From a bacterium (GTDB lineage Bacteria; Sysuimicrobiota; Sysuimicrobiia; Sysuimicrobiales; Kaftiobacteriaceae): a stretch of 64,000 nt of DNA. The notes beneath the pieces are model-generated. The model searched no databases. It was given only the letters and a program-made list of their open reading frames with translations, and was not told the origin of the DNA. The DNA lies in contig DATDQT010000152.1 of NCBI GenBank assembly GCA_035292085.1, positions 17,828 through 81,827 on the forward strand, written 5' to 3'. This document shows, piece by piece, positions 1 to 57,830 of the stretch. A program made the position numbers and the translations under genes. Each line of letters begins with the position of its first letter. Within the stretch, counting starts at the first letter, position 1.

Positions 1-1119
1 GACCTCGTCCAGCACCGACAAGTCCATCGTTTGCGGCAGGAAGTCCTCGCCGATCCCTTCCACCTTGTACGCGTGCGCCTCGGGCATCCGGCCGGTCTTC
101 ACGTACTCGTAGTACACCGACCCAATCGGATCCGCGCCGATGACGCGCAGGCCAGGATTGCGTTCCTTCAGGTACCGCCCCGCGCCGGAGATCGTGCCGC
201 CGGTCCCCATCCCGGCGACGAGGACGTCGACCCGGCCGCCGGTCTGGGCCCAGATCTCGGGCCCGGTGGTCTCGTAGTGGGCCCGCGGGTTCGCCTCATT
301 CGCGTACTGGTTGGCGTAGAAACTGTTGGGCGTCTCCTGCGCGATGCGTCGGCTCACGCTGTAGTACGATCGCGGGTCCTCCGGCGCGACCGCGGTCGGC
401 GTGATGACCACGCGCGCCCCGAACGCGCGCAGCAGCCGGATCTTCTCGTCCGACATCTTGTCGGGCATGACGAAAATGGTATGGTACCCGCGGATCGCCG
501 CGGCGATGGCCAATCCCACGCCCGTGTTGCCCGACGTCGCCTCGACGATGGTGCCGCTCGGTCGCAGGAGGCCGGCACGCTCGGCGTCTTCGATCATCGT
601 GACGCCGATCCGGTCTTTCACCGAGCCGCCGGGGTTGAGGAATTCCAGCTTGCCGACCACGTCGGCGCGAACGCCGCGCGCCACGCGGCCCAGGCGGACC
701 ATCGGCGTGTTGCCGATGACGTCGACGATACTGTCGAAGATCTGGTCGCCACGCCGGGCTTCGGGCTTCGGGCTTCGGGCTCCGGTTTTGGTCCCAGTCG
801 GCTGTGCGATGCCCGAGGACCGAGGCCCGGGGCCCGTCAGTTCGTCCATGCCGCCCGCCATCGCGGGGATGATGGACACCTCGTCATCGTCGGCCAGCGG
901 GGTGTCGAGTCCGGCCAGCTGGCGGATCTCGGTCCCGTTGACGAAGGTGTTGATGTAACTGCGCACCGCTCCCCGCTCGTCGCACACCTCCGCCTTGATG
1001 CCGGGGAACCGGCCCTCCAGCCCGTCGAGGAGCTCCCGGACTGAGCGCGCCGGTACGTCCGCCCGGCCCTGCCCGTCCGTCCACCGACGCAGCGGACTCG
1101 GAATGTAGACGCTCACCAT
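1..1119 (-). CDS. CysO/ThiS/MoaD-like sulfur-carrier domain fused in frame to a cysteine synthase / cystathionine beta-synthase-family PLP enzyme (3' end beyond the window)
   Basis: Manual minus-strand translation from ATG 1119-1117. It is absent from the ORF track because no stop lies inside the window. Residues 1-90 are MVSVYIPSPLRRWTDGQ...DDDEVSIIPAMAGG, with the GG codons at 850-855. A ~36-aa Pro/Gly/Lys-rich linker follows, then GNTPMVRL...LEFLNPGGSVKDR...EATSGNTGVGLA...YKVEGIGEDF. ATGA start/stop overlap with the upstream gene. Confidence 0.8.
   Translation of the reverse strand, partial: MVSVYIPSPLRRWTDGQGRADVPARSVRELLDGLEGRFPGIKAEVCDERGAVRSYINTFVNGTEIRQLAGLDTPLADDDEVSIIPAMAGGMDELTGPGPRSSGIAQPTGTKTGARSPKPEARRGDQIFDSIVDVIGNTPMVRLGRVARGVRADVVGKLEFLNPGGSVKDRIGVTMIEDAERAGLLRPSGTIVEATSGNTGVGLAIAAAIRGYHTIFVMPDKMSDEKIRLLRAFGARVVITPTAVAPEDPRSYYSVSRRIAQETPNSFYANQYANEANPRAHYETTGPEIWAQTGGRVDVLVAGMGTGGTISGAGRYLKERNPGLRVIGADPIGSVYYEYVKTGRMPEAHAYKVEGIGEDFLPQTMDLSVLDEV
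755..785. repeat. Tandem heptamer repeat (CGGGCTT x3 plus one imperfect copy) inside the CysO-CBS linker coding region
   Basis: Read directly; encodes ...GARSPKPEARRG... on the minus strand. Confidence 0.8.
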
Positions 1120-10510: not shown

Positions 10511-10533
10511 GGGAAGCCGGAAGCCGGGAGCCG
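10511..10533. repeat. Tandem heptamer repeat GGGAAGC-CGGAAGC-CGGGAGC, intergenic
   Basis: Read directly. Lies 10-30 nt upstream of the ATG at 10493 on the minus-strand mRNA. Confidence 0.75.
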
Positions 10534-10540
10534 TAAGGAC

Positions 10541-30509: not shown

Positions 30510-32989
30510 GTCCCTCCCGTAGAGCCGGCCACCGCGGCGAGTGCGCGAATCCGCACCATGACGCGGGGATCCCCGTCGGTCAGCTTGTTAACCGGCGTCG
30601 CGTCAAACCCGCGTGGAACAAAGACGTCGCCCCGCCTAACCGCATCCGACACGCGGGACCGCAGCGCCACCGATGCACCGGCGGACTCCACGACGACCGC
30701 GTCGCCGTCGGCGATCCCGGCGGCGGCCGCGTCGTCGGGGTGAAGCAGTACCCACGGTTCTCCGGCGAGATCGGCGATCGTCGGACTGCGCGCCGTCATG
30801 GCCCCGCGGTCGAACAAGGCGTCGCCGATGATCAGCGTCAGCGGATAATCGCCAGCCACCGGCGCGACTCGGGCTTCGGGCGTCGGGCCTCGGGCGTCGA
30901 AACCGTCGTGCGGCGGGCGGGCCGTGATGCGATGGTCGATCTCCAGACCCGGAATCATGCGGCGCATCTCGTCAAAGATCTCTTCCCAGCCGCTGTAGGC
31001 CAGCGGGCGGCCGAGCCGCTCCGACAGCAGGCTGATGATCTCCCAGTCGTTCCTGGCCTCGCCGGGTCCCTGGACCGCCGCCTCGACCCGTTGAATGCGT
31101 CCTTCGACATTGCTGACCGTGCCGGATTTCTCGGCGATGACCAGCGCCGGGAACACGACGTCCGCCGCCTGCGCGGTCTCGGTCAGAAACGCGTCCTGCA
31201 CCACGAGGAACGGCAGGGCGGCCCGGGCAGCGGTCCACCGGCGGCGGTCGGGGACAGCCGTGGCGGGATCGGCGCCCACCACGTACAGGAGCGAGAGATC
31301 GCCCCGCGCCGCCGCCGCGAGCATGTCGGGAGCGCTCAGGCCCGGCGCGCCGGCGACGGGCTCGCCCCAGGCCGATTCAAGATCGCCACGCCCCTCCTCC
31401 AGCCGCCGGTAGCCGGGCGCATGGTCGGGGAGCATCCCGGCGAGGGCCGCGCCAAACTCGTTGCCCTTCCCCCGCATCACGTTGAGCGATGTGCCGAGCC
31501 GCCGGCAGACTTCCAGCAGGGCGTCCACTGCCGCGACGCCGTCGGGCGCGTCCAACGCGAGCCGGCCGACGAGGACGGCCGGGCGGGAGGCCGACATCAG
31601 CGCTGCCGACGCCGCCTCGAGGGCGTCGTCCCGGACGCCGCCGGGGGTCTGTCCGATCCGGCGGCGTCCTGTGCGCCCCCCGATCAACGCGGCGAGCACT
31701 TCGGCCCCGACCCCGTAGCGGTGGACGAGATGATGAACGATGAACCGGCCGATCTCCAGCCGCTTCGGCGTGATGGCAATGATGGTCGCGCCGCGGTCGA
31801 CGGCCTGCTTGATCCGCAGCCACAGCACCGGGTACTCCTCGGTCAGATCACAGCCCGCCAGCACGATCACGTCCGCGGCGGCGAGGTCGGCGATCGGCAT
31901 CGTCATGCCCCACGGCACGGCCGCGCTCGCCGTGTGCGGACCCAGATCGACCCGGTGGTCGATGTGGTTGGATCCGGCCGCGGTGCGGAAGAACCGGCCG
32001 AGCACGTACGCATCTTCGTTCGTGCCGCGCCCGCCCCCAAGCAGTCCGGCCCGGCCGCCGGCGGTGCGGATCTGGCGGGCCACGACGTCCACGGCCTCGT
32101 CCCAGGACGTTTCGACGAGCGCGCCGTCGCGGCGCACCAGCGGGCGGCGCAGCCGGTCGTCCCTGCCGACATAGGCCTGTCCGTAGAACCCGAGGTCGCA
32201 CAGCCAGATGTCGTTGACGGCAGGCTGCTCCCGGGCGCGCACGCGCGTGATGGTGTTGCCCCGGACGTCCAGGTGCACGGCGCAGCCGACTCCGCAGAAC
32301 GTACAGACGCTGCTGACGGCACGGTTGTCCCACGGCCGCGCGATGAAGCGGTAACTCTTCGCCGTCAGCGCGCCGACCGGGCAGATCGCGATCGTATTCC
32401 CGATGAACTTGGACTGCACCGGCAGGGTGAACGGCGTGTTGATCTCGCTGGCGAAGCCTCGTTCAAATCCCTTGAGGGCATCGTCGCCGGCGATGATCTC
32501 TCCGAAGCGCACGCACCGCCAGCACAGGATGCATCGCTCGCGATCCAGCACGAGCACCGGCCCCAGTGACACCGGTTTCGCGAAGTCGCGTTTCACCTCG
32601 ACGAACCGGCTGCGTCCCGGTCCCCACCGGAAGGCCTGATCCTGCAGCGGACACTCCCCGCCTTTGTCGCAGATGGGACAGTCGAGGGGATGGTTGACCA
32701 ACAGGTACTCGAGCATCGCCTCCTGCCCCGCGTGGACGTCCGGCGCCGTGGTCGAGACCACCATGCCGTCGGCGGCTTCGAGGGTGCACGAGGTCTGCAG
32801 CCGGCCCATCTTCTCGACTTTGACCAGGCACATCCGGCACGCCCCCAGCGGGGGCATGCGATCGTGGTAGCAGAAGATGGGGATCTCGATGCCGGCCTGC
32901 TTCGCGGCATGGTAGACGGTGGTGCTCTGAGGCACGCGGATGTCGCGGCCGTCGATCACGACGTTGATGAGCGCCTTCGCGTCGGTCAT
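30506..32989 (-). CDS. nuoG: NADH-quinone oxidoreductase subunit G
   Basis: N-terminal 2Fe-2S/4Fe-4S Cys clusters (CRMCLV, HPLDCPICDKGGEC, CILCWRC) and a molybdopterin-oxidoreductase-like body. Confidence 0.9.
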   Translation of the reverse strand: MTDAKALINVVIDGRDIRVPQSTTVYHAAKQAGIEIPIFCYHDRMPPLGACRMCLVKVEKMGRLQTSCTLEAADGMVVSTTAPDVHAGQEAMLEYLLVNHPLDCPICDKGGECPLQDQAFRWGPGRSRFVEVKRDFAKPVSLGPVLVLDRERCILCWRCVRFGEIIAGDDALKGFERGFASEINTPFTLPVQSKFIGNTIAICPVGALTAKSYRFIARPWDNRAVSSVCTFCGVGCAVHLDVRGNTITRVRAREQPAVNDIWLCDLGFYGQAYVGRDDRLRRPLVRRDGALVETSWDEAVDVVARQIRTAGGRAGLLGGGRGTNEDAYVLGRFFRTAAGSNHIDHRVDLGPHTASAAVPWGMTMPIADLAAADVIVLAGCDLTEEYPVLWLRIKQAVDRGATIIAITPKRLEIGRFIVHHLVHRYGVGAEVLAALIGGRTGRRRIGQTPGGVRDDALEAASAALMSASRPAVLVGRLALDAPDGVAAVDALLEVCRRLGTSLNVMRGKGNEFGAALAGMLPDHAPGYRRLEEGRGDLESAWGEPVAGAPGLSAPDMLAAAARGDLSLLYVVGADPATAVPDRRRWTAARAALPFLVVQDAFLTETAQAADVVFPALVIAEKSGTVSNVEGRIQRVEAAVQGPGEARNDWEIISLLSERLGRPLAYSGWEEIFDEMRRMIPGLEIDHRITARPPHDGFDARGPTPEARVAPVAGDYPLTLIIGDALFDRGAMTARSPTIADLAGEPWVLLHPDDAAAAGIADGDAVVVESAGASVALRSRVSDAVRRGDVFVPRGFDATPVNKLTDGDPRVMVRIRALAAVAGSTGGT
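30868..30899. repeat. Four tandem NTCGGGC heptamers inside nuoG
   Basis: CTCGGGC TTCGGGC GTCGGGC CTCGGGC; encodes ...DARGPTPEARV... on the minus strand. Confidence 0.8.
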
Positions 32990-34264: not shown

Positions 34265-34825
34265 CTACCGGGCCTCGGGCGTCGGGCGTCGGGGTTCGGC
34301 ATACCCGGCCAGGATGGCGTCGACGGTCTCCGGGGTCAGTTTCCCGTGGCGGTCTTCCCCGACCATCATGACCGGGGCCTCCTCGCAGGCCGCCAGACAC
34401 TCCGCGGTGCGAAGCGTGAACCGACCATCGGGGGTCGTCTGCCCCACATCGACACCCAGCCGGGCCCGCAGGTGGTGCAGCACCTCTGCGCATCCGTCGA
34501 GTGTGCACGAGACGTTCGTACAGACCTGGATGAGGTAGCGGCCCACAGGTTTGAAGTAGTAGAGGTGGTAGAACGACGCCACGGAGGTGACCTCACTCAG
34601 CGGGAGTCCCACCACTGCGGAGACATCCTCCAGCACCGCGGGCGACAGATATCCCGCTTCGTCCTGGGCCACGAACAACGCCCCCAGCAGCGCCGACTGC
34701 GGCTGCGGGAACTGCGCCATCAGCCGCCGGATCTCGTCCTTTGCCGATTCGGACAACCGCCGCTGGTGTGGGGGTTCGCCCCGCCCTCGGCCCCCGGTTT
34801 CAGGCTCCCGGTTCCCGGTCGTCAT
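34265..34825 (-). CDS. nuoE: NADH-quinone oxidoreductase subunit E
   Basis: 2Fe-2S motif CTNVSCTL...CLAAC. The N-terminal ~25 aa are encoded by heptamer-repeat DNA, so the true start is uncertain. Confidence 0.8.
   Translation of the reverse strand: MTTGNREPETGGRGRGEPPHQRRLSESAKDEIRRLMAQFPQPQSALLGALFVAQDEAGYLSPAVLEDVSAVVGLPLSEVTSVASFYHLYYFKPVGRYLIQVCTNVSCTLDGCAEVLHHLRARLGVDVGQTTPDGRFTLRTAECLAACEEAPVMMVGEDRHGKLTPETVDAILAGYAEPRRPTPEAR
34268..34300. repeat. Tandem NTCGGGC-type heptamers at the 3' end of nuoE
   Basis: CCGGGC CTCGGGC GTCGGGC GTCGGGG TTCGGC; encodes ...AEPRRPTPEAR-stop. Confidence 0.8.
34771..34820. repeat. Heptamer-repeat tract (minus strand GACCGGG AACCGGG AGCCTGA AACCGGG GGCCGAG GGCGGGG) at the nuoD/nuoE junction
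   Basis: Read directly; forms the predicted N-terminus of NuoE. Confidence 0.7.
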
Positions 34826-50394: not shown

Positions 50395-50431
50395 TTTCAG
50401 TTCCCCGTTCCCGGTTCCCTGTTCTTTCAGA
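50395..50431. repeat. Heptamer tract (minus strand AACAGGG AACCGGG AACGGGG AAC) bracketed by CTGAAAG direct repeats, just upstream of the C45 peptidase start
   Basis: Read directly. About 30 nt closely resemble the minus-strand sequence at 13021-13050. Confidence 0.75.
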
Positions 50432-52668: not shown

Positions 52669-53403
52669 TTACGTGAGGAGGCCGAGTTCTCTGAGGCGGA
52701 TCCGCAGGGCATGCTGCGACACGCGGAATTCGCGGGCGAGGTCGGCGATGACGGTGCGGATCGCCCGGTCCCGGTCGTTGGTGCCCAGCGTGTGGAGGAT
52801 CGTGGGTTCGAGCCGCTGGAACGCCGCGCGCACGACTGCCGCCGGCATCAGCAGTTCTGCGGCAAAGGCTTTGGCATGGACCTCTTCCCCGGCCCGCATC
52901 CGCTCGCGCATGCGCGGTGCGCCGCCGGGGACGTCGCTGGCCGCGAGTGCGGTGTGGCCGAGGACGGCGTGGCCGAGTTCTTCGGCAACGGCCCACCGCC
53001 GTTCACCGTCACTGCGAAACGGGTAGTCCCGATTGAGGATGAGGATCCGGTGCTCGCTGTCTCCCTCGAGCCCGCCCCGGTATGCTGCGCTCAGCGATCG
53101 CCAGCGCACCGGATAGCCGAGCCGTTCGGCCAGCGCCTCGACGTCAGCGGGCGGTCGGATGTTGAACGCCTCGAGGATCTCGCGCGCCTGTACGGCTGCC
53201 GGCCCGGCGGCCCTCCGCCGGCGCGGGCCGATCTGGACGGGCTGCAGGGACCGGACCACGTCGAGTTCCTCCGCCGAGAATTCGCGGCCGCCGCTTTCCA
53301 ACTGCAGCAGCCCGCACTCCGGGCATGACCAAGCCACCGGCGGCTCGCACTCGCTGGCGAACCGCGCGATCATTGCCGTGGAGCAGACCGGACAGTCTCG
53401 CAT
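52669..53403 (-). CDS. ImmA/IrrE family metallo-endopeptidase with N-terminal zinc ribbon
   Basis: CPVCSTAM...CPECG ribbon. HEXXH-type AEELGHAVLGH plus a downstream EVHAKAFAAELLMP. The track start GTG 53442 lies inside repeat DNA. Confidence 0.7.
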   Translation of the reverse strand: MRDCPVCSTAMIARFASECEPPVAWSCPECGLLQLESGGREFSAEELDVVRSLQPVQIGPRRRRAAGPAAVQAREILEAFNIRPPADVEALAERLGYPVRWRSLSAAYRGGLEGDSEHRILILNRDYPFRSDGERRWAVAEELGHAVLGHTALAASDVPGGAPRMRERMRAGEEVHAKAFAAELLMPAAVVRAAFQRLEPTILHTLGTNDRDRAIRTVIADLAREFRVSQHALRIRLRELGLLT

Positions 53404-53408
53404 AGTCG

Positions 53409-53442
53409 AACTCACACAACTCACAGAACCTACACAACTCAC
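53409..53442. repeat. Three AACTCAC heptamers, including an 11-bp direct repeat ACACAACTCAC at 53414 and 53432 (18-bp period)
   Basis: Read directly from the sequence. Confidence 0.8.
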
Positions 53443-53496
53443 CCAAATTACTTGCTCGCAGCTATTCCCCTGCCCTGAGGATTCCTACCGGCTTCT

Positions 53497-53540
53497 AGTT
53501 GAGTGAGTCGTGTGAGTTGAGTGAGTCGAGTGAGTTGTTC
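53497..53540. repeat. 14-bp direct repeat AGTTGAGTGAGTCG at 53497 and 53515 (18-bp period) plus a further GAGTGAGTTG; inverse orientation to the 53409-53442 cluster
   Basis: Read directly from the sequence. Confidence 0.8.
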
Positions 53541-55801
53541 TAGACGACGGGTGCCCGCAGCAGCCGTAGGCGCGCATCGCGGGCGGCGGTGCGCACGTCC
53601 GGAAACGGCAGGCCCTCGAGCTGCATCAGGATCTCAGCCGCCTGCAGGATGATTCGCTGCAGATCACCTTCCTCCGCCTGAGACTCCGCCGCCAGTTGCG
53701 CCCACTCCGCGCCCCGCATCCAGGCCACGACGGCATCCGCACGGCGGTCGGCCGGCGACGCGACCCGCCGGCGACTGATCGGATCGTATTCGCGCTCGAA
53801 CTGCAGCGCCACCGCGTCGGGGGGCAGCGCGAACTGCCGTTCCACGTCGGCGATCTCACGGGCGAGTTTGGCCAACGCCGACAGGTCGGCTTCTCCGCCG
53901 CGGCGCGGCGCACGCTCCGTCGCCAGCGCGCCGGCGAGGGCGGCCCAGGCCGCCGTGGATCCCCCGACCAGGCTGCGGCGGACCGTCTCACCAAGGATCA
54001 GCATTCTGGGGTGCCGGAGTTCGATGGCCCACCGCCCGTCGGCAGTCAACCGGAATGAGTCATCGAGGTATCCCAGGCGCTGCAGAACTCCGGCCCGGCG
54101 CATGAATTCATCGCTCAGCGCGCCTTCCACCGCGTGAAGGGCCTGGCGCAGTGAGGACCGCCTCAATTCGCGCGCCCGCAGCGCCTCGATGGTGGCCAGA
54201 CACGTCGCTTCCACCGGACACGTCGCGCACACCCACGCGGCGATGTCCACTTCGAGCGCGGCGACGTCGTCTGGGGATGCCCGCCCCTGCTTCACCTGCT
54301 TCTGCAGCTTCGGGAGGCGCTCACGCATCCGGTCGTAGCGTCCCCGGGTGACCAGCCGGTCGTCGCACGGACGCGCGGTCAATTCATCGGGTGGAATCTC
54401 GGCGATGGCCTGCCGGAGACGTGTCGTCTCGTCCCGCCGCTCGAATGCGGCCAGAGAACGGTCGAGCGAGCGCAGAGCCTCCGCCAGCGCATACCGGCTG
54501 AGGAGGTTGAGGACTTGTATGTAGCCCGGCGTGAACGACGACGTGATGGGATCGGGCTCGGCGTCTGTGAGGGCCTGCCCTTCGCGCACCTCGTCAAGGG
54601 ATCCGGCGGGCAGTACGAGCACGCCGATGGCGTCCTTCCCGCGCCGACCCGCCCGGCCGCTCATCTGATGAAATTCTGTCGGCGTGAGCGAGACCGGCCC
54701 GTCGGGACTGTTCCGCACCAGCGTCGTCAGCACGACCGTGCGCGCGGGGACGTCCAGCCCGCTGGCCAGCGTGGTGGTGGCGCACACCGCGCGGATCAAC
54801 CCCCGCGCCAGGAGATCCTCGACCGCCAGCCGCCAGCCCGTCGTGTGGCCGGCGTGGTGGGGGGCCACCCCCGAGTCAATCACGGCGCTGCGAAACGGAT
54901 GGTGGCGGAGGAACGGGTATTCGCGCTCCCACCGCGCCAGGGCCGCCGCGCGGAGTTCAGGGCCGAACGCATGGAGCGGGGCCAGCTCGCGCGCCGCCGC
55001 ATCGCACTGGCGGCGCGATGGGAAGAACAGAATTGCCGGCAGCAGACGGTAATGTTCCAGCGAGCGCATGAGCCCGGCCAGCCACGCGGGGGCGCGGGCG
55101 CCGGCGGTGAAATGCCCCATCCCGTCGGGCGGCAGCAGGCGGCCGCGGTGGTCGACCAGGACCTGGCGCAGCGGCACCGGCCGGACAGACTCGATGATCA
55201 CGTCGGGCCGGTTCCCCCGCACGCCGGCCATCCACGCCGCAAAGGATCGGGAATTCGGAAACGTAGCCGACAGCAGCAGCAGGTGGCTGGACGCGGCCGC
55301 GAACAGCACGATCTCTTCCCACGCGGTGCCGCGCTCGGCGTCGGCCAGGTAGTGGGCTTCATCGAGCACAATCAAATCCGGAGCCAAGGCGTCGCCGTAC
55401 AGTGCGTTCCGCAGGATTTCTGTCGTGGCCACAATGACCGGCGCCTGCGCGTTGATGCGCCGTTCTCCGGTGAGCAGCCCGACGTAGTCGGCACCGTACA
55501 GACCGCTGAACCGGTGGTACTTCTGATTGGAGAGCGCCTTCAGCGGAGTCGTGTACCAGGCACTGCCGCCGCGAGCGAGGATCTCGGCCATCGCCTGTTC
55601 GGCGATCCAGGTCTTTCCGCTGCCGGTCGGAGCGACCACCAGGACGTCGTTCGTGCGTATGGCGGCCAGCGCGGCCTCCTGGAATCCCGCGGGGACGAAC
55701 GCCGACGGGGGAGGCGTGCCGACGTCTTCGAGAATCGCGCGCAGTTTCGCGGACGTAGGGCGGCGAACCGGCTCCCGCGAAGCAGTCCTGCTGCGCGCCA
55801 T
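53540..55801 (-). CDS. Ski2/HelY-like DExH-box helicase with DSHCT-like C-terminal domain
   Basis: APTGSGKTW (motif I), VLDEAHYL (DEAH), SATF, HHAG and GRAGRRG motifs. The C-terminal VLQRLGYLD...LTADGRWA.EL resembles the DSHCT domain. Confidence 0.85.
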   Translation of the reverse strand: MARSRTASREPVRRPTSAKLRAILEDVGTPPPSAFVPAGFQEAALAAIRTNDVLVVAPTGSGKTWIAEQAMAEILARGGSAWYTTPLKALSNQKYHRFSGLYGADYVGLLTGERRINAQAPVIVATTEILRNALYGDALAPDLIVLDEAHYLADAERGTAWEEIVLFAAASSHLLLLSATFPNSRSFAAWMAGVRGNRPDVIIESVRPVPLRQVLVDHRGRLLPPDGMGHFTAGARAPAWLAGLMRSLEHYRLLPAILFFPSRRQCDAAARELAPLHAFGPELRAAALARWEREYPFLRHHPFRSAVIDSGVAPHHAGHTTGWRLAVEDLLARGLIRAVCATTTLASGLDVPARTVVLTTLVRNSPDGPVSLTPTEFHQMSGRAGRRGKDAIGVLVLPAGSLDEVREGQALTDAEPDPITSSFTPGYIQVLNLLSRYALAEALRSLDRSLAAFERRDETTRLRQAIAEIPPDELTARPCDDRLVTRGRYDRMRERLPKLQKQVKQGRASPDDVAALEVDIAAWVCATCPVEATCLATIEALRARELRRSSLRQALHAVEGALSDEFMRRAGVLQRLGYLDDSFRLTADGRWAIELRHPRMLILGETVRRSLVGGSTAAWAALAGALATERAPRRGGEADLSALAKLAREIADVERQFALPPDAVALQFEREYDPISRRRVASPADRRADAVVAWMRGAEWAQLAAESQAEEGDLQRIILQAAEILMQLEGLPFPDVRTAARDARLRLLRAPVV

Positions 55802-56970: not shown

Positions 56971-57000
56971 TTGGACGCCGTCGCTCAACTATGCTATATT
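56971..57000 (+). promoter_or_regulatory. Candidate sigma-70-type promoter (TTGGAC - 18 nt - TATATT, with TGC extended -10)
   Basis: Read directly. The -10 ends 8 nt before ATG 57009, implying a very short or absent leader. Embedded CTCAAC...GTTGAG dyad. Confidence 0.4.
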
Positions 57001-57008
57001 GTTGAGTG

Positions 57009-57830
57009 ATGACAATGGCGCGCCGACTCCCGCGGCGCGATCCCTTACGACTCTTCCACATCCAATCCGATTTTGCCGCGGGCCTGGCTCCAACCGACAT
57101 AGCCAAAAAGCACGAGTTGCCCGTCCCGGCGGTCTTGCAGATTGTGCGCGGCCGCAAGCGGGATGACGGGCTGCTCGATCCATTCCAGCTGGCCCACGAC
57201 GGCACGCGCGGGCGTAGTACCACGCAGATGTACTGGCTCGGATACATCGCCGCATGCGGCCGGCTCTACCATCAGGGACCCTCGTCCACCCTGGTCTTGG
57301 ACGTCGATCGCCGGGATGTCGATCACGTGCGCCAGCTGGTGGAAGATCTCATTCCCGGACGGACGTCGTGCGAATTCTGCGAGAGCAGCCAGAGCGGTTT
57401 GCAGGCCTACATCCGCGACCGCGACCTGGGCACGCTGCTGTCGCAGTGGGGCATTCCCGGCGCTGATCCGACGGAAGGATCGGTGCCGATTTCGCTGATT
57501 CCCGGCTCGCTGATGCCCCACTTCGTGCGCGGGTATCTCGAGGGGAGCCGCAATCAGCCCCCGTTCGGGCTCACGCTCGTCCCGGCGACGATGGCGTCGA
57601 TCCGCACCGTGGCGATGGTCGGCCCGCAGGACTTCGTCACCGCGCTGGGCGCGGCGCTGCGCAAACACGTCGACATTGGCCCCGGCACGATTACCGGCCG
57701 ACGCGACAGATTGAAGACGCTGACCTTCAAGGGCGCCAAGGCCAAGAAGATCGTCCAGTATGCCTACCGCGACCCCACGCGCTCGATGCCGCGGGTCGCG
57801 AGGTTCGTCCAGTCGATCCGGCCTCGCTAG
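57009..57830 (+). CDS. HTH plus double LAGLIDADG-like fold protein with substituted catalytic residues (putative DNA-binding, non-nuclease)
   Basis: YWLGYIAACGRLY and HFVRGYLEGSRN, about 100 aa apart, resemble the two LAGLIDADG helices (compare YLLGLIIGDGGLY). N-terminal LAPTDIAKKHELPVPAVLQIVRGR is an HTH-like segment. Confidence 0.45.
   Translation: MTMARRLPRRDPLRLFHIQSDFAAGLAPTDIAKKHELPVPAVLQIVRGRKRDDGLLDPFQLAHDGTRGRSTTQMYWLGYIAACGRLYHQGPSSTLVLDVDRRDVDHVRQLVEDLIPGRTSCEFCESSQSGLQAYIRDRDLGTLLSQWGIPGADPTEGSVPISLIPGSLMPHFVRGYLEGSRNQPPFGLTLVPATMASIRTVAMVGPQDFVTALGAALRKHVDIGPGTITGRRDRLKTLTFKGAKAKKIVQYAYRDPTRSMPRVARFVQSIRPR

Follow-up and report, generated by a model that had tools for sequence, protein, structure and literature searches.

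The element described in this study fills the spacer between two genes read from the minus strand, a Ski2/HelY-like DExH helicase gene and, downstream of it, a gene encoding a zinc-ribbon and Peptidase_M78 (ImmA/IrrE-like) protein (Table 1). The window, that is the whole stretch of 64,000 nucleotides analysed, comes from a MAG (G000) of 1.97 Mb in 158 contigs, with 67% GC and 87% completeness. Both gene assignments given in the initial annotation agree with the Pfam domains found, and, as had also been remarked there, no repressor gene lies adjacent. The helicase-ImmA pair is single-copy and is kept across the taxonomic family, with ImmA identities of 62-74%.

Table 1. Features of the helicase-ImmA spacer and its flanking genes.
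Feature	Coordinates	Strand	Basis and position
Ski2/HelY-like DExH helicase	53540..55801	-	DEAD, Helicase_C, DSHCT (Pfam); 5' neighbour of spacer
Zinc-ribbon + Peptidase_M78 (ImmA/IrrE-like) gene	52669..53403	-	Pfam; 3' neighbour of spacer
Arm adjoining ImmA	53408..53452	-	Sequence; 9-spaced repeats; paired in MFE
Loop between arms, 44 nt	53453..53496	-	Sequence; fold
Arm adjoining helicase	53497..53541	-	Sequence; 9-spaced repeats; fold
Whole predicted intercistronic RNA hairpin	53395..53548	-	Folding energy vs shuffles

On the plus strand the helicase stop codon reads CTA at 53540-53542, and the ATG of the ImmA-like gene lies at 53403. The latter is taken as the start codon because the ImmA orthologues share a conserved N-terminus, M-R-x-C-P-x-C; a GTG at 53442, inside one of the arms, was ruled out as a start by the same N-termini. 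No SD precedes the ImmA start, which stands 4 nt beyond the 3' arm, and the 3' arm is followed by CGACUAUG. Neither an intrinsic terminator (GC-rich hairpin and U-tract) nor a sigma-70 promoter was recognised in a scan of 53300-53700, and the Rfam 15 covariance models gave no match at E up to 1 over 53000-54000. The loop between the arms holds no ORF.

The spacer of about 137 bp is composed of two inverted arrays of 9-bp units, four to five copies of CAACTCACN and four to five of NGTGAGTYG, on either side of the loop. The ImmA-side arm has five units on the plus strand (GAACTCACA, CAACTCACA, GAACCTACA, CAACTCACC and CAAATTACT), the last one being degenerate. The helicase-side arm likewise has five (AGTTGAGTG, AGTCGTGTG, AGTTGAGTG, AGTCGAGTG and AGTTGTTCT), and its final unit overlaps the helicase stop codon. 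Four in-register copies at a spacing of 9 were recovered from each block by the repeat search, and TRF returned a period of 9 with 4.2-4.3 copies. All the individual repeats listed in the initial annotation are present, namely AACTCAC three times near the ImmA start (53409, 53418 and 53436), ACACAACTCAC at 53414 and 53432, and the 14-mer AGTTGAGTGAGTCG at 53497 and 53515 followed by GAGTGAGTTG. The 18-bp period assigned to them needs to be revised, as the basic period is 9 bp and 18 arises from two alternating unit variants (TTG and TCG). These variants, TTGWGTGAG and TCGWGTGAG, fall in a superfamily TTGNGTNNN. The unit GTGAGTTGN contains no run of three or more G. The 9-mer repeated along each arm is itself not a palindrome; only the element as a whole is palindromic.

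Within the window, the 14-mer AGTTGAGTGAGTCG has three matches at up to two mismatches (0.26 expected), and the 8-mer core GTGAGTTG/CAACTCAC occurs six times (1.2 expected), four of these inside the spacer. A related 9-mer at 57001-57009, which had been offered as a possible coincidence, is a lone dyad (CTCAAC-N13-GTTGAG) with no tandem structure, and this fits coincidence. The loop contains CGGTAGGAATC, a match with two mismatches to a motif CGGCAGGAAGC, which is weak given that about 8% of random 200-nt windows equal it; the motif is exact in four array-less orthologous spacers and significant in G005 (one mismatch).

The mutual complementarity claimed for the two clusters holds: over 49 nt of inverted pairing the arms are 73% complementary, and sub-pairs reach 80-92%. 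In the sense (minus-strand) RNA the helicase-side arm becomes a C/A-rich 5' arm of CAACUCACN type, and the ImmA-side arm a G/U-rich 3' arm of UGUGAGUUG type that ends just ahead of the ImmA AUG. The sense RNA of 53395-53548 is predicted to adopt a single long hairpin with interruptions, at -69.3 kcal/mol, compared with -43.3 +/- 3.9 kcal/mol for shuffled controls (z = -6.6), none of the 200 controls folding as well. About 45 interrupted base pairs are predicted, with a mismatch about every 9 nt, and at the base of the hairpin the helicase stop region is paired with the ImmA start region. The earlier proposal that the transcript could join these two regions is thus supported by the predicted fold, and the energy is far better than that of shuffled sequence. 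In a cross-genome strand comparison the same spacer gave -63.9 for the sense and -46.7 for the antisense strand.

The same build was found at about 20 intergenic sites of this 2-Mb Sysuimicrobiota (CSP1-3) MAG, so the repeat is not specific to the locus, as the genome scan suggested in the initial annotation has made clear. A BLAST search of G000 with the element returned 19 matches, i.e. 18 further ones on 11 contigs, and a two-unit pattern gave 16 matches against one for its control. A scan with the degenerate unit recognised 27 arrays, with none in three shuffled genomes, which served as the control since the unit is quasi-symmetric on reversal and a reversed genome would be invalid. All 27 lie between genes, the neighbours being co-directional in 17 cases, convergent in four and divergent in two. 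Most of them take up nearly all the sequence separating one gene's stop codon from the next start codon, and at C158 the first unit includes the stop codon. The common build of these loci is (CRACTCACN)n, a loop of 20-80 nt and (NGTGAGTYG)n, with a conserved core of TTGNGT at period 9 and three variable positions, for which the variants GAG, AGG, CGG, CAG and AGA were seen. Copies differ in unit number (3-7), and solo arms occur. Among arms of the AGATTG type, an asymmetry between left (CAATCTACC) and right (GGGAAGATTGG) is identical in four copies. When 19 copies in G000 were folded in sense and antisense, in order to detect RNA-level selection by way of G-U pairs, no consistent bias was observed (4 vs 5 for the co-directional copies).

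A broader survey of G000 with TRF gave 170 strong arrays of period 7-9. An inverted partner lies no more than 200 bp away for 71 of them, compared with a direct partner for only five. The paired arrays represent at least ten unit families, including AACTCACAC, AATCTACCC/AAGATTGGG, ACCTACG, ACTGCCT, AAACCGG, ACCATCC, ACCCCGG and a GGGATCA type. The element in the helicase-ImmA spacer belongs to this broader class of inverted 7-9-nt tandem-repeat hairpins, which comprises many unit families and fills intergenic gaps in this Sysuimicrobiota family.

The relatives to which the ImmA-like protein led are MAGs under the names Armatimonadetes, ANGP1 or Candidatus Calidihabitans tengchongensis, and such MAGs fall in the phylum Candidatus Sysuimicrobiota, formerly CSP1-3 (PMC11604079). 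The exact unit GTGAGTYG was found only in G000 and one congener, G003. Degenerate TTGNGTNNN arrays were found in 11 of the 40 relatives searched; ten belong to taxonomic family f1, and the eleventh, G027, belongs to another family and has TTGNGTNNN counts no higher than its control counts. Several variants are genome-specific (TGTAGGTTG and TGTCGGTTG in G002, TTGCGTCYA in G005), and G008 gave more than 70 hits. Most array-bearing genera also have dispersed arrays with a GGGAT core and a period of 7, 8 or 9; G005 has none of these and carries GGAAACGA arrays instead. Genera g2 and g7 have neither TTGNGTNNN nor GGGAT-core arrays. A scan of metagenomes for three consecutive GTGAGTYG units gave at least 119 hits, of mixed GC and from unrelated habitats. 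An inverted partner accompanied only 5 of 80 of them, and a home-built HMM picked up no PF05635-like ORF.

At the orthologous helicase-ImmA site, two inverted tandem arrays of unrelated units were observed in G001, G003, G005, G007, G011 and the ANGP1 MAG. The units of these relatives are GGGATTA (period 7), GGGATAAGA (period 9), GGAAACGA (period 8), GGGATCC (period 7), GGGGATAA and GGGACTAG. Hairpins were scored in G000, G001, G003, G005 and G011, the inverted arrays of G007 (GGGATCC) and ANGP1 (GGGACTAG) being judged by eye; those of the scored relatives have z values of -6 to -9, and the sense strand gives the more stable fold of the two in all five scored genomes, a small sample. A hairpin base of AACTGCGGGA...TCCCGTAGTT is common to most of the relatives' spacers. 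In genus g2 and four further lineages that lack arrays, the orthologous spacer shows no significant structure (z near 0). Conservation in homologous loci, which the initial annotation had made a touchstone of its reading, is therefore divided, with the repeats themselves not conserved and the pairing potential kept in some lineages only. Given that orthologous spacers vary or lack the hairpin altogether, the gene pair has no conserved requirement for the repeat sequence or for the structure.

The GGGAT type occupies this site in G001 and G003 (genus g1), G011 (g3) and G007 (g5). Because it is shared across three genera, the GGGAT-type hairpin may be the older state, in which case the G000 lineage would have swapped in the GTGAGTTG type and kept the outermost AACT...AGTT pairs.

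Turnover was also evident at other sites. Twelve elements of G003 and G002 had their flanks placed in G000 by tblastx, and nine of them had usable synteny. Three of the nine sites are empty in G000 (C83:30376-30486, C51:77316-77360 and C154:14827-14910), and at four others the element in G000 has another unit variant and another loop (C20, C115:15218-15330, C6:8362-8467 and C129). The remaining two (C83:29465-29626 and C124:47425-47618) have kept one alignable arm, the other having been swapped for a different hairpin repeat, cattgcgag...ctcgcaatgac, so that nested insertions are seen as well. At orthologous sites the arms of G003 can be aligned with those of G000, the units having changed little. 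The three empty-site comparisons revealed no recognisable insertion signature, such as a target-site duplication, in genomes that are strongly diverged. The arms sit as long inverted termini of the element, which invites comparison with MITEs. In this turnover the sites behave as unstable or mobile DNA does, with a measure of vertical inheritance.

PF05635 is a four-helix-bundle protein family of 23S-rRNA intervening sequences (IVS). It is a very large family, for which, to our knowledge, no role is known beyond diversity-generating retroelements and rRNA intervening sequences. One to nine copies were found per array-bearing genome, and the family is present in exactly the array-bearing genera; it is absent from g2 and g7, and from eight out of eight other families of the order. 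Only about two clades that lack arrays independently (g2 and g7) inform this co-occurrence by genus, and RAYT-like genes share the pattern. Of the 30 PF05635 loci in relatives, 19 are flanked by arrays within 220 bp on each side and 25 on at least one side. Chance bracketing is negligible, given that the density of strong arrays in G000 is about one per 12 kb. The layout of these cassettes is an array, 30-110 nt, the ORF and an inverted array. The units on the two sides are complementary in nearly all loci, and their sequence changes from one locus to the next (AGTTGGAA, GTGACTG, GCGATAAGA, CGTTGGT, AACGTTGA, GGAAACA, CGACAACG, GTGAATC, GTCTTCCCA and others). Around half of the cassettes share an outer motif, AACTGC-(array)...(array)-GCAGTT, regardless of the unit. 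The architecture of the repeat class is that of the ends of PF05635 cassettes in sister genomes, and 23S-rRNA intervening sequences are built in this way too.

For some of these cassettes the orthologous site was located in G000. The cassette of G002:C82 and G001:C118 corresponds to a 19-bp empty spacer at C152:5285-5303, and that of G002:C135 to an empty site directly after a stop codon at C130:~14690. At C77:8688-8785, the site matching a third cassette, G002:C30 (GGTTCGG/CCCGAAC), there is a hairpin that has no gene and whose units (CGGGCAT/GAAGCCC) are nearly identical. The terminus of the G002:C135 cassette, ...GATCCCGTAGTT, matches the ends of the relatives' helicase-ImmA hairpins. Cassettes with the 9-mers GTCTTCCCA/GGGAAGACT are one base away from the gene-less AGATTGGGA family of G000, and the sister 9-mer unit AAGACTGGG likewise differs from AGATTGGGA by one mismatch. 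Overall, 11 of 33 cassette units lie at a distance of one or less from G000 arrays, a modest excess over shuffled units (6.6 +/- 1.8). None of the PF05635 cassettes among the loci examined has TTGTGTGAG-type arms, and G000, as an 87% complete MAG, gave a single sub-threshold PF05635 hit (26.8 bits) with no arrays alongside. The link to PF05635 cassettes is accordingly one with the repeat class and the sister 9-mer unit, and not with the exact TTGTGTGAG family. Since its loop is without an ORF and G000 is without an array-flanked PF05635, the copy at 53404-53539 is at most a gene-less derivative. PF05635 has been discussed in connection with rRNA intervening sequences and diversity-generating retroelements (PMC10053308), and no paper tying it to tandem-array flanks was found in our literature search.

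The spacer is probably best regarded as a gene-less copy of a lineage-specific, dispersed inverted-array hairpin repeat, similar to IVS, which is selfish or neutral and not a dedicated regulator. This view draws on the dispersal and lineage restriction of the repeat, its presence or absence at orthologous sites, the replacement of unit families at this very spacer and the bracketing of PF05635 genes. A gene-less derivative may have arrived in the gap by insertion or conversion, displacing an older GGGAT-type hairpin, and would have persisted as a selfish or neutral element. The hairpin is presumably co-transcribed with the helicase gene, as no terminator or promoter consensus was found, and it would then act only as an imperfect RNA duplex of about 45 bp. 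Such a duplex could block 3' exonucleases and so shield the 3' end of the helicase mRNA. By analogy with rRNA intervening sequences (PMC4990558) it is also a likely substrate of RNase III, which could split the two cistrons, and it could partly mask the closely following, SD-less ImmA start.

A further-reaching idea, which we put forward tentatively and to which we give a minor share of the probability, is that inverted tandem-array hairpins, with or without a PF05635 gene, constitute one undescribed class of mobile cassette in which each PF05635 lineage reads the unit of its own arms. Such cassettes would be free-living relatives of rRNA intervening sequences, with PF05635 serving as an oligomeric reader of the 7-9-nt register, tuned in each lineage to its own-arm unit. 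Gene-less hairpins such as that at 53404-53539 would be non-autonomous copies, and arms could be overwritten by another unit family, as from the GGGAT type of relatives in three genera to the GTGAGTTG type here.

Other explanations of the spacer have to be weighed against a gene-less dispersed repeat. One is that the operon needs an intercistronic hairpin at this point, whether for processing, as a 3' stabiliser or as a mask on ImmA translation, selection acting to preserve the fold despite drift in sequence, and the copies elsewhere being incidental. Strong hairpins stand at the same position in all five scored genomes, with arrays visible in G007 and ANGP1 and a basal stem common to most relatives. 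The proximity of an SD-less ImmA start to the 3' arm points the same way, and the greater stability of the sense strand in five out of five would also fit selection on RNA. However, the hairpin is missing (z about 0) from g2 and four further lineages that retain both genes, and the identical architecture is seen in dozens of unrelated gaps. The sense bias does not extend genome-wide (4 vs 5 co-directional copies). Moreover, permissive gaps are few in a compact genome, so that repeated occupancy of one of them is to be expected, and a locus-specific structural RNA is on balance unlikely. The operator or iteron array offered as an alternative in the initial annotation, with phased sites for a repressor cleaved by ImmA or for the HTH protein encoded at 57006-57830, is very unlikely. 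Contiguous short repeats in both orientations do recall the heptad operators of ribbon-helix-helix repressors, and one copy of GTTGAGTGA lies upstream of the 57006 gene. That site is a lone dyad, though, an adjacent repressor gene is absent, and arrays of the unit occupy about 20 functionally unrelated gaps, including those between convergent genes. The orthologous spacers hold hairpins of unrelated units, or none, despite the ImmA identity of 62-74%, and with a period of 9 bp neighbouring sites would not share one face of the DNA helix.

Mobilisation as a REP/REPIN-type element by a RAYT (Y1 HUH) transposase would also account for extragenic, dispersed elements that are polymorphic for presence and absence. 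PF01797 is found in exactly the array-bearing genera, with four copies in G000 and none in g2 or g7. GTAG, the tag of one REP superfamily (PMC3733652), was seen within variant units, including the common unit TGTAGGTTG, and at the ends of the relatives' hairpins (...CCCGTAG). Yet none of nine Y1_Tnp loci is flanked by tandem arrays, and two of the four Y1 genes of G000 are flanked on both sides by a different palindrome of their own (GATCGGTGCCAGGCACCGATC and GGGGTCTGACCCC). The arms are runs of a non-palindromic 9-mer and not palindromic units of 20-40 nt, and G024 has Y1_Tnp but lacks arrays of both types tested, all of which makes this origin improbable. Much the same low probability attaches to a purely local microsatellite, grown in place by slippage with hairpin-templated (quasi-palindrome) correction and no mobility. 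Such growth would explain the variable number of units (3-7), the solo arms, the GGGAT core shared by periods 7, 8 and 9, and the small unit changes between alignable arms of G003 and G000. Polymerase slippage has indeed been raised as one explanation for the abundance of Xanthomonas heptamers (PMC4692102). Independent growth nevertheless leaves unexplained why about 20 loci share one unit that is confined to two genomes, and array-gene-array cassettes are present or absent as whole units. The arm asymmetry that recurs in four copies of the AGATTG type points to common descent.

Reading the spacer as a gene-less copy of a dispersed repeat removes a tempting but wrong inference, that of an operator array of its own, from the annotation of the ImmA locus. 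It also adds a new phylum, Sysuimicrobiota/CSP1-3, and a 9-nt unit that is not G-rich to the little-studied paired inverted microsatellite hairpins, which within the literature searched had previously been described only in Xanthomonas and cyanobacteria. The association of the repeat class with PF05635 cassettes is the part worth following. The contrast within the family is clean, with PF05635 in the array genera and not in the array-less ones, and a repeat partner would make the function of PF05635 testable.

Several known systems share features with the element. Like REP, BIME and REPIN sequences (PMC3733652), it is extragenic, dispersed, hairpin-forming and species-specific in sequence, and it recurs at the same intergenic positions of related genomes, mostly in co-directional or convergent gaps; unlike REP and REPIN, its arms are tandem 9-mers, and the Y1 transposase genes are without flanking arrays. 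The STRR heptamers of heterocystous cyanobacteria form hairpins between genes, e.g. hupS-hupL, and have been proposed to act in transcript stability or translational coupling (PMC2670836). They too are dispersed intergenic tandem arrays of short units that form hairpins, but they differ in being heptamers of cyanobacterium-specific sequence with no associated gene in their descriptions (PMC2670836). The 23S rRNA IVS with an S23p/PF05635 ORF, known from Coxiella and Leptospira, have been described as selfish and as excised from the RNA by RNase III (PMC4990558). A long stem of inverted flanks is common to both, and in the gene-bearing relatives a PF05635 ORF is enclosed as well. The copy here lies between protein genes and has a 44-nt loop without an ORF, and published accounts of IVS do not include a stem made of tandem units.

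Among published systems the nearest analogue is the convergent pairing of GGGAATC heptamers in Xanthomonas, where 70-75 inverted pairs occur per genome (Rehm et al., 2015, PMC4692102). Those heptamers are 89-93% intergenic and lie near ORF ends, at sites that are kept across species while length and sequence vary (PMC4692102). The element shares with them head-to-tail units of 7-9 nt (here 4-5 per arm) and a complementary array in convergent orientation nearby (here 44 nt apart), capable of forming a stem-loop. It also shares the intergenic location near ORF ends and the occupation of orthologous sites by differing units or unit numbers. It differs in its 9-nt unit without G-runs, to which a G-quadruplex reading is inapplicable, although the GGGAT-type families elsewhere in these genomes would be open to it, as the Xanthomonas type is. 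It differs further in belonging to another phylum, in the coexistence of several unit families and, in a respect for which the Xanthomonas study (PMC4692102) reports no parallel, in an architecture that brackets PF05635 genes in sister genomes.

The 9-mer elements (two inverted arrays of 9-bp units around a loop) are not always intact in the source genome. A second hairpin repeat family with a GC-rich stem, cattgcgag...ctcgcaatgac, was observed outside the window (see table), and one arm of 9-mer elements is interrupted or substituted by such a hairpin. The orthologous site in the same-genus relative G003 holds an intact, complete 9-mer hairpin, which suggests that the cattgcgag-type hairpins are nested insertions into pre-existing hairpins.

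Locations of arrays, hairpins, motifs and genes
Feature	Location
Second hairpin family	C83:29465-29626; C124:47425-47618; C36:255-345
Further 7-nt arrays	window 755-836; 10512-10537; 30869-30899; 34269-34293; 50400-50424
Contig ends with 9-mer element	C148:26-318; C152:315-611
AGATTG-type hairpin	C91:3295-3588
Loop match to CGGCAGGAAGC	window 53478-53488
CTCAAC-N13-GTTGAG dyad	window 56986-57009
RAYT-like Y1_Tnp genes (outside window)	C106:9525-10160; C83:4114-5037
C-numbers, contigs of the source genome.

The further 7-nt arrays recognized by TRF in the window, with units of the CGGGCTT/CGAGGCC, GGAAGCC, TCGGGCG and GTTCCCC types, represent additional unit families within the class to which the 9-mer element belongs; some apparently lie within coding regions. 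The two contig ends bearing the same 9-mer element are mutual reverse complements, reflecting either a contig overlap or an assembly break at the repeat. The AGATTG-type hairpin adjoins an apparent minus-strand tRNA gene (GGGGAGACTCGAACTCCC...).

Amongst the orthologous helicase-ImmA spacers that lack arrays, four (L041, L043, L044 and L047) carry CGGCAGGAAGC exactly, some 65-70 nt upstream of ImmA, and decayed TAATCCC-like remnants were found on one side in spacers of this kind. The same motif occurs with one mismatch in the hairpin loop of the relative G005 (L037) and with two in the loop of the source genome. CGGCAGGAAGC may be an ancestral spacer signal now bracketed by the arms, perhaps a promoter element for ImmA. 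The 155-226 nt spacers of Ca. Calidihabitans and a relative (L045, L046) contain direct arrays of CGTTGGAA/GTTGAAG and CCCTCTT/CTTTCCC units but no significant overall hairpin, and these units also flank a PF05635 gene in G012 (L074). Around half of the PF05635 cassettes in the relatives (L067-L096) bear an inverted motif, AACTGC ... GCAGTT (or GTAGTT), outside their arrays and independent of the array unit; it could be a common cassette end recognised by whatever mobilises them.

The related 9-mer with a CTCAAC dyad partner noted in the initial annotation in the promoter of the LAGLIDADG-like HTH gene is indeed present, directly upstream of that gene (57006). This dyad has one 9-mer in common with the 9-mer element; no tandem structure was found at it, and it is therefore probably an unrelated small operator, or a coincidence.

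Each of the two RAYT-like genes is flanked on both sides by short palindromes of its own, GATCGGTGCCAGGCACCGATC and GGGGTCTGACCCC respectively. This palindrome-gene-palindrome arrangement is the classic REP-RAYT layout, so this genome probably contains a REP system alongside, and distinct from, the array hairpins.
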